Positions 28,448 to 50,334 of a stretch of DNA of 64,000 bases are shown here, piece by piece; the first letter of the stretch is position 1; every line of letters starts with the position of its first letter. This DNA is from Alphaproteobacteria bacterium. GTDB taxonomy: Bacteria; Pseudomonadota; Alphaproteobacteria; Rs-D84. A program made the position numbers and the translations under genes. A model generated the notes under the pieces. The model saw only the letters and a program-made list of their open reading frames with translations, did no database searches and had not been told where the DNA came from. Where the stretch lies: contig SUUO01000002.1 of NCBI GenBank assembly GCA_015062485.1, forward strand, positions 19,605-83,604. The letters run 5' to 3'.

Positions 28448-28523
28448 TGGTGGCTAGGGACGGAATCGAACCGCCGACACAGGGATTTTCAGTCCCTTGC
28501 TCTACCAACTGAGCTACCTAGCC
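28448..28523 (-). tRNA. tRNA-Phe (GAA), CCA encoded
   Basis: The minus strand GGCTAGGTAGCTCAGTTGGTAGAGCAAGGGACTGAAAATCCCTGTGTCGGCGGTTCGATTCCGTCCCTAGCCACCA folds into a canonical cloverleaf with anticodon loop CTGAAAA. Confidence 0.95.
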
Positions 28524-34640: not shown

Positions 34641-35252
34641 TTAGAACATAAAGCGGATACCAACATCGCCACCAAAATTATGCAGACCTGAATTAACATC
34701 TACATAGTTATAGCGTGCGGCCAAATCAACAGCGAAACGTTTCATATCAAACGTCACACCCATTGTTCCCATTGCTGAAAACGATGTCTTGCTGTTGCCG
34801 TGATGTGGAACCAATGTACCGCTGCGTGTGATATCTGTGAACGCAACACCGGCACCCATACCAAAGAATGGACGAACAATTTCATACGGTCCAAATTCCC
34901 AATAACCGTTCATTAACAATGTCTGCATTTTCGCTTTAATTTTTGCATCGCCGACACTGCCAAAGTTTTCGGTATCTTCCAATTTACCGAATATAGACCA
35001 TTCGATTTCAGCGCGCATTTTATCACAAACTTCTAAACCCAACGCTGCACGACCTTGCAGAACCGTATCCGTCAAAGATTCTTTTTGCCCGTTATAGCGA
35101 TAGTTTAAGTTTGTATATGATGCACCACCACGTAAACCGACATATGGGTCCATACCCCACATTGTCCAACTGCTGCCCTGGTTTGGGTTATTCATAGCGA
35201 ACGCGGGGCACGCCAATAACACCGCCAGTGTTGATATTGCTAATTTTTTCAT
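34641..35252 (-). CDS. Small outer-membrane beta-barrel protein (OmpA-like/Omp25-type 8-strand barrel)
   Basis: Signal peptide (LLACPAFA), alternating aromatic beta-strands and a C-terminal ...GGDVGIRFMF. Confidence 0.6.
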   Translation of the reverse strand: MKKLAISTLAVLLACPAFAMNNPNQGSSWTMWGMDPYVGLRGGASYTNLNYRYNGQKESLTDTVLQGRAALGLEVCDKMRAEIEWSIFGKLEDTENFGSVGDAKIKAKMQTLLMNGYWEFGPYEIVRPFFGMGAGVAFTDITRSGTLVPHHGNSKTSFSAMGTMGVTFDMKRFAVDLAARYNYVDVNSGLHNFGGDVGIRFMF

Positions 35253-35597: not shown

Positions 35598-35673
35598 TGG
35601 TGGACGCGCAGGGACTCGAACCCTGGACCCACTGATTAAGAGTCAGTTGCTCTACCAACTGAGCTACGCATCC
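35598..35673 (-). tRNA. tRNA-Lys (CTT), CCA encoded
   Basis: The minus strand GGATGCGTAGCTCAGTTGGTAGAGCAACTGACTCTTAATCAGTGGGTCCAGGGTTCGAGTCCCTGCGCGTCCACCA folds into a canonical cloverleaf. Confidence 0.95.
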
Positions 35674-35753: not shown

Positions 35754-36362
35754 TCACTCTTCATAAAAGCAAGTTCCATTTAATAAAAACCTACCACTTT
35801 CATCTGCGTACACGCCACCATCATAATCTTCAAACCAACAATCTGATGCAGATGTTGAATTATAGTCTGAATATACACTTCCACAATAGCCATCAACACA
35901 ATCAAAATCCGTTCCTGGGCAAGACTCTAATCCATACGAATTAAAAAAACTCCCCGATTGTTGTACCGACGCATATATATCCCCATAACTAACCGATATA
36001 TTCACCCCGGGACAATATCCATAGGTACAATCCGATTCATAAAAATTAACATCTGCATTCTCTGAAACACTCAAGGTTGCATACATACCCGCATCCACAT
36101 CAATAACAATATTACAATCGGTATCAATATCATCTATGGTCCACAAAAAACCATCCCAGTCACTATCATCTAAAACATCCGAACATAAAACACCATTATA
36201 TTCTATATCTTCAATCAACATACAACTGGTCCCATAATAGTTATTAACCTCATATCCATCATTCACACTATACATCGTACACGGCGTCAACCACCGCCCA
36301 GCCTTTGTATCAAAAATTACCACCGACATTATCAAGCAACCAAATATAAGAATCTTTTTCAC
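35754..36362 (-). CDS. Secreted acidic cysteine-rich protein (202 aa), hypothetical
   Basis: GTG start after an AAGGGGG RBS. Signal-like N-terminus (MKKILIFGCLIMSVVIF), 13 Cys, D/E/Y/G/S-rich, ends ...GTCFYEE. Confidence 0.6.
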   Translation of the reverse strand: MKKILIFGCLIMSVVIFDTKAGRWLTPCTMYSVNDGYEVNNYYGTSCMLIEDIEYNGVLCSDVLDDSDWDGFLWTIDDIDTDCNIVIDVDAGMYATLSVSENADVNFYESDCTYGYCPGVNISVSYGDIYASVQQSGSFFNSYGLESCPGTDFDCVDGYCGSVYSDYNSTSASDCWFEDYDGGVYADESGRFLLNGTCFYEE

Positions 36363-36565
36363 AGTTCGCCCCCTTGCATTTTTTCAAGAAAAAACCACCA
36401 AATCCGGTGGCAGGAGGTTCGTAACTATTAAAATGGAAATAGTGCCGTGCCTTCAATATATAACACGGACCCTCCTGCCTTTTTTGTATTGCAGGAGTCC
36501 TTTACCGTCCCTACGGACGCCATTTTATAAGGGTTACGACACCCCGAACCATCCAAGTGATTCAT
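36363..36565 (-). promoter_or_regulatory. Structured 5' leader, family copy 1 (three-way junction + alternative hairpin + terminator)
   Basis: P1 is GGCAGGAGG (36480-36472) paired with CCUCCUGCC (36418-36410). P2 is CCGUG/CACGG and P3 is ACUAUU/AAUAGU. The terminator is CCACC-GGAUUU-GGUGG-U6. Upstream GGACUCCUGC (36501-36492) can pair with the P1 5' strand instead. Confidence 0.6.
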
Positions 36566-36570
36566 ACCAA

Positions 36571-36599
36571 TTATATTAGTTTTTATATATTATGGCAAG
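36571..36599 (-). promoter_or_regulatory. Sigma-70-like promoter driving leader copy 1
   Basis: The minus strand reads TTGCCA-N17-TATAAT. Confidence 0.6.
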
Positions 36600-48478: not shown

Positions 48479-48507
48479 TTGCACAAACATAAACTATCCG
48501 CTATAAT
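48479..48507 (+). promoter_or_regulatory. Sigma-70-like promoter driving leader copy 3
   Basis: TTGCAC-N17-TATAAT, beginning 3 nt after the MITE right end. Confidence 0.6.
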
Positions 48508-48513
48508 CGTTAC

Positions 48514-48741
48514 GTTATGACGATTTTGTCATAATGGGGTGTCATAGCCCGTGATTTCGGCACCATGTATTGATTACGTGGTGATAAATATTCTTTCTCC
48601 AATCATTGGGTTGGAGGGCTGTGAATAATACGTGTTTATCACGTAAAATAAGCACACTATACCGAATTATAGCTATGAACCTCCAACCGCTTGAATTTCT
48701 CGGCGGTTTTTTCATTCGTGAAAATCAAAGGAGGTCAAAGA
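48514..48741 (+). promoter_or_regulatory. Structured 5' leader, family copy 3
   Basis: P1 is GGUUGGAGG (48610-48618) paired with CCUCCAACC (48681-48689). P2 is UGUG..ACGUG/CACGU..CACA and P3 is CUAUA/UAUAG. The terminator AACCGC..GCGGUU-U6 shares 4 nt with P1. The alternative hairpin CUCCAAUC (48598-48605) pairs with GGUUGGAG. Confidence 0.6.
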
Positions 48742-49317
48742 ATGAAGAAACTTATTTATGTTATACCAATTGTATTGGGTGGATTGGTATCTGATGCATA
48801 TTCTCACAATCTGCGTCAGGCAGCTGTAACCATAGATGGAATATCGTACGAAGTGTGGATTAACCAAGAATCTGAAGATGCCGGAAGTTATCAAATTGAT
48901 GCGGGTACAAAAGAATGTTTTGACGGCGACATACTGATTGAGTATTCTGATGACTTTTCAATGGAAACAGCCCGAAGTATATGTATCCAAGGAATAGCCT
49001 GTTTCCCGGGAAACGCCGAATGTTTTGACGGTTCCACAACGGTTAAAATGTGCAGTGAATATACATTTAATTGTGTAACGGTTGAGATTGGTGCAATGGA
49101 ATCGGTTGATGGTTATAGTGATACTTTCACCTGTATTCAGGGGTATTATAAGGACAAGATGGAATGTCAACGCTGTCCGTCGTCAGGTGGGGTGTACGGA
49201 ACGACAAAATCCAGTGGTGCGACCAGTATTACAGAATGCTATATCCCATCAGGCACAGATTTTTCAGACTCTTCGGGAACGTGGGAATATGACCAGAATT
49301 GTTATTACAGCAAATAA
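48742..49317 (+). CDS. Secreted acidic cysteine-rich protein (191 aa), hypothetical
   Basis: AGGAGG RBS 7 nt upstream of the ATG at 48742. Signal-like N-terminus (MKKLIYVIPIVLGGLV) and 12 Cys. Contains C-x2-G-Y-Y-x5-C-x2-C-P-x2-G-x-Y... spacing and ends ...QNCYYSK. Confidence 0.6.
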   Translation: MKKLIYVIPIVLGGLVSDAYSHNLRQAAVTIDGISYEVWINQESEDAGSYQIDAGTKECFDGDILIEYSDDFSMETARSICIQGIACFPGNAECFDGSTTVKMCSEYTFNCVTVEIGAMESVDGYSDTFTCIQGYYKDKMECQRCPSSGGVYGTTKSSGATSITECYIPSGTDFSDSSGTWEYDQNCYYSK

Positions 49318-49340
49318 TAACTTAGCGTCTGTCCACTGAT

Positions 49341-49372
49341 AAAAAATCCCGGCAAATGCCGGGATTTTTTTT
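49341..49372. terminator. Bidirectional intrinsic terminator (identical to 48161-48191)
   Basis: AAAAAATCCCGGC-AAAT-GCCGGGATTTTTTTT between convergent genes. Confidence 0.8.
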
Positions 49373-50021
49373 AAAACAACTTGAACTTGTAATTCGTACC
49401 TGCGCGGAATGTTGTATCTGCACTGGAAATTCCGGCACCTGCATTCATCGACCAGTTGTCTGTTAAACCAATCGCAAAGCCAAACGCGGCCGCCGATTCG
49501 CCATTATGATATCCATAGCCACCACCCACAGATACCTCGCCACGGGCAACATCAGATACCGCAACCGAAGACAATGCCGCCACACTTGCAATACCGGCCG
49601 ACAAATCTTTTTCTATATCACTAACCGTGTTTTCTAGTCTCGAAATTGCCGCGCTGTTTAATGCGATTGCATCTGCATTTGCCGCAATTGCATCATTTGC
49701 CAATACCGCATTGGTATAGTATCCCTGCATAATAAAGGCTGTATCATTGATAATGCCATTTACCACACCGATATTATCCGTTTCGTTTTCATACGCAGAT
49801 GTTGTGTTTTCTGTTTTTGCCCACGCCACCAGGTCTGTCATTGGATCAGAACTGCCATTCAGCGCGACACGCAAATCACGCATTGCATCCCACGAATTAT
49901 CGATACGTTCAATTGCCGCACGTGCATCATCCAATGTGGTATTCATTTCTGTACCATATGTTGCAAATGCTGGTGCTGTCATAATTGCGCACAATGCGCC
50001 ACCCAGAAAGATTTTTTTCAT
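49371..50021 (-). CDS. Minimal trimeric-autotransporter-like protein (coiled stalk + YadA-like C-terminal anchor)
   Basis: Signal peptide (ALCAIMTAPAFA) and heptad-like stalk. The C-terminus GIASVAALSSVAV...GEVSVGGGYGYHNGESAAAFGFAIGLTDNWSMNAGAGISSADTTFRAGTNYKFKLF matches the four-strand YadA anchor pattern. Confidence 0.55.
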   Translation of the reverse strand: MKKIFLGGALCAIMTAPAFATYGTEMNTTLDDARAAIERIDNSWDAMRDLRVALNGSSDPMTDLVAWAKTENTTSAYENETDNIGVVNGIINDTAFIMQGYYTNAVLANDAIAANADAIALNSAAISRLENTVSDIEKDLSAGIASVAALSSVAVSDVARGEVSVGGGYGYHNGESAAAFGFAIGLTDNWSMNAGAGISSADTTFRAGTNYKFKLF

Positions 50022-50299
50022 TTTCTTTTCCCTTTGTATTTTTGTTAAACAAAAACCACCAAATAAATTGGTGGCCAGGGGGTTAAGAAAATCATAAGAA
50101 AGAATGACCCCTGTGGCCTTTACGCATACGCGCTGTTATATAGCCACAGGCCCCCCGACCGTAATCGGGAAAATCAGACAAAATAAAAAGCGCATCCGCG
50201 CCAGTTTTTTGTCCCAGGTCGGATTCCAATGCGAATATTGACGCATCGCTTTCTTAAAGGATTTCTTACGTCCCCGAAGCCAACATCCCTGTTGGATTC
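50022..50299 (-). promoter_or_regulatory. Structured 5' leader, family copy 2
   Basis: P1 is GGUCGGGGGG (50160-50151) paired with CCCCCUGGCC (50082-50073), including two G-U pairs. P2 is CCUGUGGC/GCCACAGG and P3 is UCAU/AUGA. The terminator is CCACCAA-UUUAU-UUGGUGG-U5. The alternative strand UUCCCGA lies at 50171-50165. The 5' end GAAUC matches copy 1. Confidence 0.55.
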
Positions 50300-50305
50300 A
50301 CATCA

Positions 50306-50334
50306 ATTATAAAATACACACAACAAAATATAAA
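50306..50334 (-). promoter_or_regulatory. Possible promoter driving leader copy 2
   Basis: The minus strand reads TTTATA-N17-TATAAT. The -35 element is weak. Confidence 0.4.

Follow-up and report, generated by a model that had tools for sequence, protein, structure and literature searches.

Three long leaders in a 64,000-nt stretch of an Alphaproteobacteria bacterium genome (GTDB Rs-D84; assembly GCA_015062485.1, contig SUUO01000002.1, positions 19,605 to 83,604; hereafter "the window") share one RNA architecture, which we read as a c4/Xcc1-type RNA module that now serves as a transcription attenuator ahead of genes for secreted and surface proteins. We put the probability of this reading at roughly 60%. 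The leaders, named c1 (36363-36599, minus strand), c2 (48514-48741, plus strand), and c3 (50022-50299, minus strand), belong to a single, large RNA family with more than 100 members in gut Alphaproteobacteria with reduced genomes. The original prediction presented them as an undescribed family of structured leaders with mutually exclusive helices and a terminator. The shared architecture was borne out by scans of the window and by a covariance model of the family, but "undescribed" was too strong: the junction core appears to be a distant homolog of sRNA-Xcc1 (Rfam RF02221), and has the same topology as phage c4 RNA. The family is only partly new and forms no categorically new class; it was previously unannotated.

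Each copy is most likely a transcribed leader of about 185–255 nt with its own sigma-70 promoter, judging from the near-consensus promoter sequences that had been proposed and that a consensus scan confirmed (Table 1). Behind the promoter lie a 5′ domain that ends in a strand able to pair with the 5′ strand of helix P1 (anti-P1), a three-way junction core (helices P1, P2, and P3, and the junction strand J3/1), and a terminator hairpin that in c1, c2, and c3 alike overlaps the P1 3′ strand by 2–4 nt, as predicted. All of the P1, anti-P1, P3, and J3/1 strands quoted earlier are in place. P1 is GGCAGGAGG/CCUCCUGCC in c1, GGUUGGAGG/CCUCCAACC in c2, and GGUCGGGGGG/CCCCCUGGCC in c3; the P3 strands are ACUAUU/AAUAGU, CUAUA/UAUAG, and UCAU/AUGA, and J3/1 ends in GAA, GAA, and UAA, respectively. 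Three further parts were absent from the original prediction, namely a 5′ hairpin (P0), a pairing between the loop of hairpin E1 (y) and J3/1 (y′), and a pairing between a linker (x) and the P3 loop (x′).

A degenerate core pattern matches the 64 kb exactly three times, at c1, c2, and c3, with 0 matches expected by chance. Run on the window with filters off, the family covariance model (R1) scored 77.5 bits for c2, 71.8 for c1, and 44.7 for c3; because the next match (24.5 bits) is only an antisense echo of c1, the window holds exactly three copies. A descriptor scan of the window for more P1-plus-U-run candidates gave nothing convincing besides these, and a terminator scan found the hairpins of c1 (36411-36394) and c3 (50076-50054). 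In isolation the cores fold as a three-way junction plus hairpin (z = −3.4, −2.9, and −5.0 for c1, c2, and c3). Whole-leader folding gave z = −3.7, −5.3, and −5.1, and in these minimum-energy folds P1 is replaced by the anti-P1:P1-5′ hairpin together with a full-length terminator.

Homologs were retrieved by scanning the degenerate core pattern, which required GGNNGGRGGG, ARCCYCC, and GGYGGTTTTT, over one genome per GTDB species. The scan yielded at least 119 stretches and, after de-duplication and removal of three obvious chance matches, at least 111 distinct leaders; all family counts in this text (denominators of 111, 113, 105, and 118) are among the matches listed in that scan. Nearly all hosts are gut or rumen metagenome-assembled genomes (MAGs) labelled "Candidatus Enterousia," "Rickettsiales bacterium," or uncultured Alphaproteobacteria, including a sheep-colon MAG (RGIG5353) with 97% identity to the window over 8 kb (locus L019), which places the window in the same species. 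The Rs-D84 lineage, to which "Ca. Enterousia" belongs, has reduced genomes of about 0.75–1.0 Mb and depends on other cells (PMC12306168). A covariance model built from homologs recovers c1–c3; the further homologs and the covariation that the original prediction called for were found, and R1 also detects extra leader copies within the same 8-kb homolog loci.

Since a MAFFT alignment of the three copies only misplaced helices, a MAFFT alignment of the family (A4) was used instead. In A4 and in right-aligned upstream sequences the entire leader is conserved, in the 5′ to 3′ order −10 box, P0, E1, linker x, hairpin H, A-rich spacer, anti-P1, junction core, and terminator. The −10 box forms a conserved block of columns, the P0 loop reads G(U/A)GUU, anti-P1 lies 2–11 nt upstream of the P1 5′ strand, and conservation extends to hairpin H and the A-rich linker. 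It reaches 90% or more in the P2 loop (G-AAUAUAUUGAAUAA-G) and at a bulged C, whereas J3/1 and the P3 loop are hypervariable.

Pairing was counted for each helix by projecting a hand-drawn structure onto A4. The P0 helices are 90–93% paired with many double changes, the E1 stem 87.5%, hairpin H about 92%, P1 100% with three covarying pairs, P2 85.5%, P3 92.5%, and the base of the terminator (AACCAC:GUGGUU) 98.6%. Anti-P1 pairs with the P1 5′ strand in 91–94% of cases and changes along with P1 where P1 varies, at two positions. The structure has a covariation score of 0.453; shuffles give 0.186, none of the 500 attaining the real score, and controls with slid partners stay at or below 0.125. 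De novo folding of the MAFFT core alignment with RNAalifold recovered only P1 and the terminator stem, and P2 and P3 needed the hand-projected structure. The compensatory changes described among the three copies are matched in the family, where covariation in at least 111 homologs supports every helix, including anti-P1, and with them the two proposed exclusions, of P1 by anti-P1:P1-5′ and of the full terminator by P1. G-U pairs abound on the sense strand alone, which indicates that the structure forms at the RNA level.

The two long-range pairings are hypervariable and specific to each copy. On A4 the E1-loop:J3/1 helix is 98% paired, and five of its six pairs are doubly changed (61, 54, 55, 30, and 14 cells). 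In an alignment-free comparison with cross-leader controls, 108 of 113 leaders carry, within their own 5′ domain, a Watson–Crick complement to the J3/1 9-mer that is 7 nt or longer and always lies 50–69 nt upstream of P1; the complement averages 7.25 nt in the same leader and 4.45 nt in other leaders, and the 113 leaders carry 49 distinct 9-mers. The same kind of comparison for x and the P3 loop gave means of 7.53 nt (own leader) and 4.29 nt (other leaders). The predicted duplex energies in c2 are −8.6 kcal/mol for y:y′ and −5.4 kcal/mol for x:x′.

The leaders contain, in sequence, the parts of an intrinsic-terminator attenuator: a GC-rich hairpin with a U-tract, an overlapping antiterminator helix (P1), and a competing anti-antiterminator (anti-P1). 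Left free, the terminator has a folding energy of −9.7 (c1), −9.2 (c2), and −12.4 (c3) kcal/mol, which falls to −2.0, −2.0, and −4.2 kcal/mol when P1 holds its 3′ strand. The nested minimum-energy state, with anti-P1, the long-range helix, and the full terminator, lies at −64.7 (c1), −73.6 (c2), and −99.4 (c3) kcal/mol, and the state with P1 enforced and the long-range duplexes left out at −58.0, −60.0, and −86.8 kcal/mol. The two long-range duplexes (X and Y) sum to about −12 to −14 kcal/mol, and adding them to the P1 state would make the two conformations roughly isoenergetic.

From the anatomy, covariation, and energetics we infer how termination might be controlled, the RNA processed, and the switch triggered. 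Because polymerase makes anti-P1 just ahead of the P1 5′ strand, the OFF fold should form first. Anti-P1 would capture the P1 5′ strand, leaving the P1 3′ strand free, so that its last 2–4 nt complete a terminator of 7–9 bp and a terminated RNA of about 190 nt is released. If P1 forms instead (ON), it would cut the terminator back to a weak stem of 4–5 bp, and polymerase would read into the secreted- or surface-protein gene. The switch may be set by RNA–RNA pairing or by processing; a protein that binds the conserved P2 loop is another candidate, and a metabolite in the junction seems less likely. RNase P may in turn trim the terminated product to an Xcc1-like RNA of about 90 nt. Cleavage could fall at the GGU/GGC start of P1, beside the 3′ ACC, and the family carries this context (GGU/GGC at the start of P1 and A/G-CC after it).

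Novelty was to be judged by a search of Rfam, and here the outcome was divided. None of the leaders matches a family at the gathering thresholds, but the c3 core (50065-50160, minus strand) matches RF02221 along its full length, at model positions 1–87, with a sub-threshold 40.3 bits (E = 4.2e-5; gathering score 53). Permissive Rfam thresholds returned nothing for c1 and no family-specific match for c2. Among 18 related loci none reaches the gathering score of any family; several relatives have sub-threshold, end-to-end RF02221 matches (L012, 42.5 bits; L037, 33.4 bits; L030, 32.7 bits). A scan of viral contigs for the canonical Xcc1 P1 pattern found only chance matches in GC-rich coding DNA, none at the gathering score.

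The RF02221 consensus also retrieves elements in 305 Escherichia coli genomes. We fetched two (L130:2363-2610 and L131:2366-2612), which score 79.6 and 79.8 bits and, at about 80 bits, are taken as genuine Xcc1. Both lie about 40 nt upstream of prophage genes, of the ORF6N and BRO-N antirepressor-like types, and R1 ranks them first in their respective loci, although with only 22.0 and 19.1 bits (E = 7e-4 and 3e-3). Upstream of each is a promoter and a hairpin, GGUG-CUCAAAA-CACC, whose loop complements J3/1 (UUUUGAG), as well as a segment x1 complementary to the P3 loop (GCAAGUAG with CUACUUGC in L130, UGCAAAG with CUUUGCA in L131). Second sites occur downstream, one with CUCAAAA again in a hairpin loop and the other, x2 (CAAGUAG or UUGCAAAG), reaching into the AGGA Shine-Dalgarno sequence; a comparison of L130 with L131 shows x1, x′, and x2 covarying. 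We read this arrangement as the a1b1/a2b2 layout of c4 RNA from phages P1 and P7, extending beyond what RF02221 covers; it also resembles the CI RNA of phage P4 with seqA and seqC.

The leaders and Xcc1 share the three-way junction: P1 has 9 bp and is rich in G, P3 is short, J3/1 is rich in U, ACC follows P1, and the P2 loop is A-rich (AAUA..GAAUAA). Complements of the upstream hairpin loop to J3/1 and of x to the P3 loop occur in the genuine E. coli elements and in the leaders alike; for Xcc1 these upstream sites are a feature found in this analysis and lie outside the Rfam definition. Their position is shared as well, about 40 nt upstream of accessory genes, where Xcc1 stands in E. coli, APSE, and Xanthomonas. 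The gut family differs in having lost the distal P2b hairpin in most members, in adding the adjacent anti-P1 strand and the U-tract terminator that overlaps P1, and in its downstream genes, which encode secreted proteins rather than symE, ORF6N, or BRO-N; the E. coli elements, for their part, have a terminator in the 5′ domain and second complementary sites over the Shine-Dalgarno sequence. The platform of the leaders would be transcriptional, since the P1-overlapping terminator and anti-P1 replace the complementary sites that cover the ribosome-binding site (RBS). Within the window c3 is the most Xcc1-like copy, keeping a terminator-like hairpin in its 5′ domain as the E. coli elements do.

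sRNA-Xcc1 was first found in an integron cassette (bioRxiv 10.1101/2025.06.18.660453), has been detected in Xanthomonas as a discrete 88-nt RNA (PMC2996969), and is treated as a trans-acting small RNA (sRNA; bioRxiv 10.1101/2025.06.18.660453, PMC12189769). In the searchable literature, which treats Xcc1 as trans-acting, we found no description of its 5′ domain. The recurrence in E. coli Xcc1 of a 5′ domain, a junction RNA, and copy-specific pairings suggests that RF02221 covers the 3′ domain only.

The leaders also follow the C4 model of Rfam (RF01695) in their layout of P1, P2, P3 (with a 12-nt loop), J3/1, and ACC. In the leaders as in c4 and CI RNAs, the 5′ and 3′ ends close P1, two hairpins follow, the P3 loop is large and, like J3/1, variable, and these variable loops are complementary to upstream sites in the same transcript (a1/b1, seqA). 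RNase P releases c4 RNA from a longer transcript, cutting at a GGW motif where P1 begins, and the variable loops of c4 set its targets (PMC5320573); P1 of the leaders likewise begins with GGW, and by analogy they may be cleaved. The CI RNA of phage P4 controls transcription termination through an upstream seqA and a downstream seqC (PMC4825925). It is the match between the copy-specific pairings and these a1/b1 (seqA) sites that points to RNA–RNA pairing or processing as what sets the switch. No copy in the window matches the C4 model (gathering score 45 bits), however, and the relative L037 reaches only 27.5 bits. P1 has 9 bp in the leaders versus 17 bp in the C4 model, and the leaders are chromosomal, multi-copy, and outside any phage immunity operon.

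IsrK of Salmonella Gifsy-1 (RF01394) is comparable as a leader that serves both as sRNA and as mRNA and has its own terminator, whose terminated and read-through isoforms interact and whose two forms differ in activity (PMC4825925). In one E. coli prophage (L130:1462-1649) isrK immediately precedes a C4 element, with a Rha-family gene behind the two, an order that mirrors that of 5′ domain and junction RNA in the leaders. The Xcc1 element of the same prophage lies about 850 nt further downstream, preceding the ORF6N gene, which would make this one immunity region with two c4-type modules. The terminator-like hairpin within the c3 5′ domain is a likeness to IsrK that c1, c2, and most family members lack. 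It resembles the internal terminators of IsrK and of the E. coli Xcc1 5′ domains, and a short 5′ RNA could be its product. IsrK activates translation, whereas the visible platform of the leaders is a transcription terminator, and the isrK model does not match the 5′ domains in the window.

Several points weigh against reading the leaders as a c4/Xcc1-type attenuator. The c3 match to Xcc1 falls short of the RF02221 gathering score (53 bits), and c1 and c2 have no RF02221 match at E ≤ 10 under permissive Rfam thresholds. Sites of the a2/b2 (seqC) kind over the RBS, within 60 nt past the terminator, are absent from the gut family: the downstream complement test gave 5.63 nt in own versus 5.38 nt in other leaders, and 4.23 versus 4.03 nt, and c3 has only a weak, A-rich 7-nt candidate downstream. 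The inner five pairs of P1 and the 3′ strand of the terminator are conserved partly by construction, because the scan pattern imposed them; P1 pairs 1–4, the terminator 5′ strand, P2, P3, and the whole 5′ domain were not selected by the pattern. On the MAFFT alignment the x:x′ helix is only 39–53% paired, and its support comes from the alignment-free test, as its columns fall in regions of variable length. The reading presupposes that E1, P3, and both long-range helices can coexist in three dimensions. Transcription start, termination, and read-through at the leaders are themselves deduced from sequence. Tandem units with no open reading frame (ORF) between them, moreover, suggest that the RNA may also act on its own. 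Locus L070 (5566-6073, minus strand) has three complete units with a promoter apiece, followed by a 78-aa XRE-like ORF, and in the first unit a U-run comes directly after the P1 3′ strand with no separate terminator hairpin; L089 (2370-4181, plus strand) has four units within 2 kb.

These tandem units would suit stand-alone Xcc1-type sRNA genes, in which the terminator is constitutive, the RNA works in trans or serves as a decoy, anti-P1 does no more than shield termination from P1, and the downstream genes are mere neighbors or receive basal read-through. The discrete, supposedly trans-acting 88-nt sRNA-Xcc1 (PMC2996969, PMC12189769) and the strong terminator that trails every core fit the same idea. 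We consider it unlikely. About 100 of 118 leaders are followed on the same strand by an ORF that has an RBS and begins about 10–40 nt after the U-run, which leaves no room for another promoter, and the precise 2–4 nt overlap of P1 with the terminator, together with the covarying anti-P1, is hard to explain without regulated termination. Nor does the window offer a trans target above shuffled background: the best non-self duplexes of the P3-loop/J3/1 region reach −14 to −17.5 kcal/mol, and shuffled queries −11.7 to −20.7 kcal/mol. Among these duplexes is one between the c3 P3-loop/J3/1 (50084-50104, minus strand) and the RBS and start of the c2 gene (48718-48756, plus strand), at −14.5 kcal/mol, no better than shuffles. 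A trigger protein is another candidate, either an RNA-binding protein or an Hfq/ProQ-like chaperone that binds the A-rich P2 loop or hairpin H and thereby selects P1 or anti-P1, much as attenuators under PyrR or TRAP are controlled. The P2 loop is the only strongly conserved unpaired sequence and is shared with Xcc1 (AAUACAAUA...GAAUAA), and the conservation of hairpin H and the A-rich linker would also be explained. However, no candidate protein was identified and nothing in the window co-varies with the leaders, and we hold this to be decidedly unlikely; it differs from the attenuator reading we prefer only in the nature of the trigger.

A metabolite or second-messenger riboswitch, in which a ligand in the three-way junction stabilizes P1 and prevents termination, is suggested by the classical platform layout. 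As in T-box and PyrR attenuators and in many riboswitches, anti-P1 corresponds to the anti-antiterminator and P1 to the antiterminator, with overlapping strands and a terminator that shares part of P1, and tandem units also occur in some riboswitches. Leaders in many copies per genome, ahead of varied and poorly characterized secreted proteins, resemble c-di-GMP-I riboswitches, and the G-AAUAUAUUGAAUAA-G loop and bulged C of P2 are conserved. The leaders nevertheless have no conserved ligand pocket, tRNA-binding specifier, or T-box sequence; they have almost no conserved unpaired nucleotides in the junction and no Rfam riboswitch match, in the window or at related loci. Their sensor elements are copy-specific RNA–RNA pairings, J3/1 and the P3 loop varying together with upstream partners in the manner of RNA–RNA recognition, and a metabolite pocket is hard to place in so hypervariable a junction. 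The relatives, Xcc1 and c4, are moreover antisense-type RNAs. A riboswitch, whose layout the original prediction had noted beside that of an attenuator while suggesting a protein, temperature, or a host cue as input, is in our estimate very unlikely. A purely DNA-level repeat (a mobile promoter cassette, attC-like site, or REP-like element with no functional RNA structure) could account for several and sometimes tandem copies per genome and recalls the first finding of Xcc1 in an integron cassette (bioRxiv 10.1101/2025.06.18.660453). It would not be expected to keep its pairing by compensatory changes while the sequence diverges, to have abundant G-U pairs on one strand that would be A-C on the other, or to hold a fixed orientation to promoter, terminator, and downstream ORF, and its probability is next to negligible. 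A temperature response does not fit an RBS located 15–25 nt past the U-tract and outside the conserved helices, and an RNA thermometer was dropped as an explanation, as was a leader-peptide attenuator, since there is no conserved small ORF.

The genes behind the leaders agree with the original description, two of them encoding Cys-rich proteins with signal peptides and the third a YadA-anchor protein (PF03895). The association with secreted and surface proteins extends through the family, in which 82 of 105 downstream ORFs have a signal-peptide-like N-terminus by a simple heuristic. Few have Pfam domains; these include Flg_new (5 members), XRE-type helix-turn-helix (at least 3), DNA methylases, glycosyltransferases, a trypsin, and an outer-membrane protein barrel. 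The 202-aa protein controlled by c1 has no relative besides itself among 5.8 billion proteins, and the contigs that contain it are the same organism re-sampled. In a related genome (L100), the leader, lldD, and a tRNA are conserved at 80–93% identity to the window (93% in the tRNA region, and about 80% for the leader, lldD, and the genes beyond), and the gene between leader and tRNA (L100:371-1000, compared with 35754-36362 in the window) encodes an unrelated 210-aa secreted protein. This swap between conserved flanks indicates a stable leader fronting a gene with fast turnover.

The importance of the family lies in its size, in its hold on the secretome of a gut lineage with reduced genomes, and in its consequences for our view of sRNA-Xcc1. 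Three leaders within 64 kb, together with multi-copy loci, suggest that a sizeable share of the secretome sits behind one leader class, making the leader a candidate master control of surface presentation in uncultured gut symbionts. A bolder version, which we place well on the improbable side, is that control is self-addressed. Each locus would have a private address (E1 loop:J3/1 and x:P3 loop), and the processed junction RNA would act on nascent transcripts of its own locus or a chosen paralog to set termination, a domesticated form of c4/CI phage immunity logic. If true, dozens of hypervariable secreted and surface genes would be governed, for example through feedback, mutual exclusion, or stochastic surface variation, and sRNA-Xcc1 would be recast from a trans-acting RNA to the 3′ domain of a cis-acting switch. 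As Xcc1 is widely annotated as a trans-acting virulence sRNA, a c4/CI-like cis element would change how that annotation is read. The family is well suited to experiment, with more than 100 natural variants that carry compensatory changes in two competing conformations.

Table 1. Predicted parts of the three leaders and their downstream genes (positions in the window).
Copy	Feature	Positions	Strand	Details
c1	Promoter	36570-36598	−	TTGCCA-17-TATAAT; 11/12 consensus matches (consensus scan)
c1	P0 hairpin	36546-36563	−	Directly after predicted transcription start; from folding
c1	E1 hairpin	36531-36545	−	GGGG-UGUCGUAA-CCC; loop y (36533-36540) complementary to J3/1
c1	Linker x	36520-36529	−	UAUAAAAUGG; complementary to P3 loop, duplex −6.7 kcal/mol
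c1	Hairpin H	36506-36519	−	CGUCC-GUAG-GGACG
c1	Anti-P1	36491-36500	−	GGACUCCUGC; pairs with P1 5′ strand in minimum-energy fold
c1	Three-way junction core	36409-36479	−	From folding and R1 (71.8 bits); P1 5′ 36471-36479; P2 36444-36470; P3 36424-36443 (x′ 36429-36436); J3/1 y′ 36419-36425; P1 3′ 36409-36417
c1	Terminator	36389-36411	−	GCCACCG-GAUU-UGGUGGU + U6; 7 pairs; GCC shared with P1 3′ strand
c1	RBS and downstream gene	35754-36375	−	RBS 36369-36375; 202 aa, Cys-rich, signal peptide
c2	Promoter	48480-48507	+	TGCACA-16-TATAAT; 10/12 consensus matches
c2	5′ domain	48515-48604	+	P0 48515-48534; E1 48536-48550 (loop GUCAUAGC); x 48551-48560; H 48561-48583; anti-P1 CUCCAAUC 48597-48604
c2	Junction core	48609-48688	+	P1 48609-48617 / 48680-48688; P2 48618-48657; P3 48657-48672; y′ 48672-48678
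c2	Terminator	48685-48712	+	AACC shared with P1 3′ strand; bulged, visible by folding only
c2	RBS and downstream gene	48729-49317	+	191 aa, Cys-rich, secreted; weak Ephrin_rec_like match
c3	Promoter	50306-50334	−	TTTATA-17-TATAAT; 10/12 consensus matches
c3	5′ domain	50165-50299	−	P0 50276-50299; E1 50259-50275 (loop UAAGAAA); x 50249-50255; hairpin 50226-50249; anti-P1 UUCCCGA 50165-50171
c3	Internal terminator-like hairpin	50180-50202	−	GGCGCGGAUGCGC + UUUUUAUUUU U-run; hairpin 50202-50189; upstream of anti-P1
c3	Junction core	50073-50160	−	P1 50151-50160 / 50073-50082; P2 50110-50150; P3 50092-50107; y′ 50084-50090
c3	Terminator	50051-50076	−	9 pairs + U5; GGCC/CC shared with P1 3′ strand
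c3	RBS and downstream gene	49371-50035	−	216 aa, short YadA-anchor autotransporter; PF03895, E = 7.3e-11

At the Rfam gathering thresholds the window as a whole contains two tRNAs only, at 28451-28523 and 35601-35673 (minus strand). The second directly follows the c1-controlled gene, at the conserved edge of the variable cassette. A gene for a small outer-membrane beta-barrel protein of the Opacity family (34641-35252, minus strand) adjoins the c1 locus and has no leader copy. Between the convergent c2 and c3 genes lies a strong bidirectional terminator (AAAAAATCCCGGCAAATGCCGGGATTTTTTTT, 49336-49368), which accounts for the weak Rfam matches to STnc370 and Leu_leader near that position.

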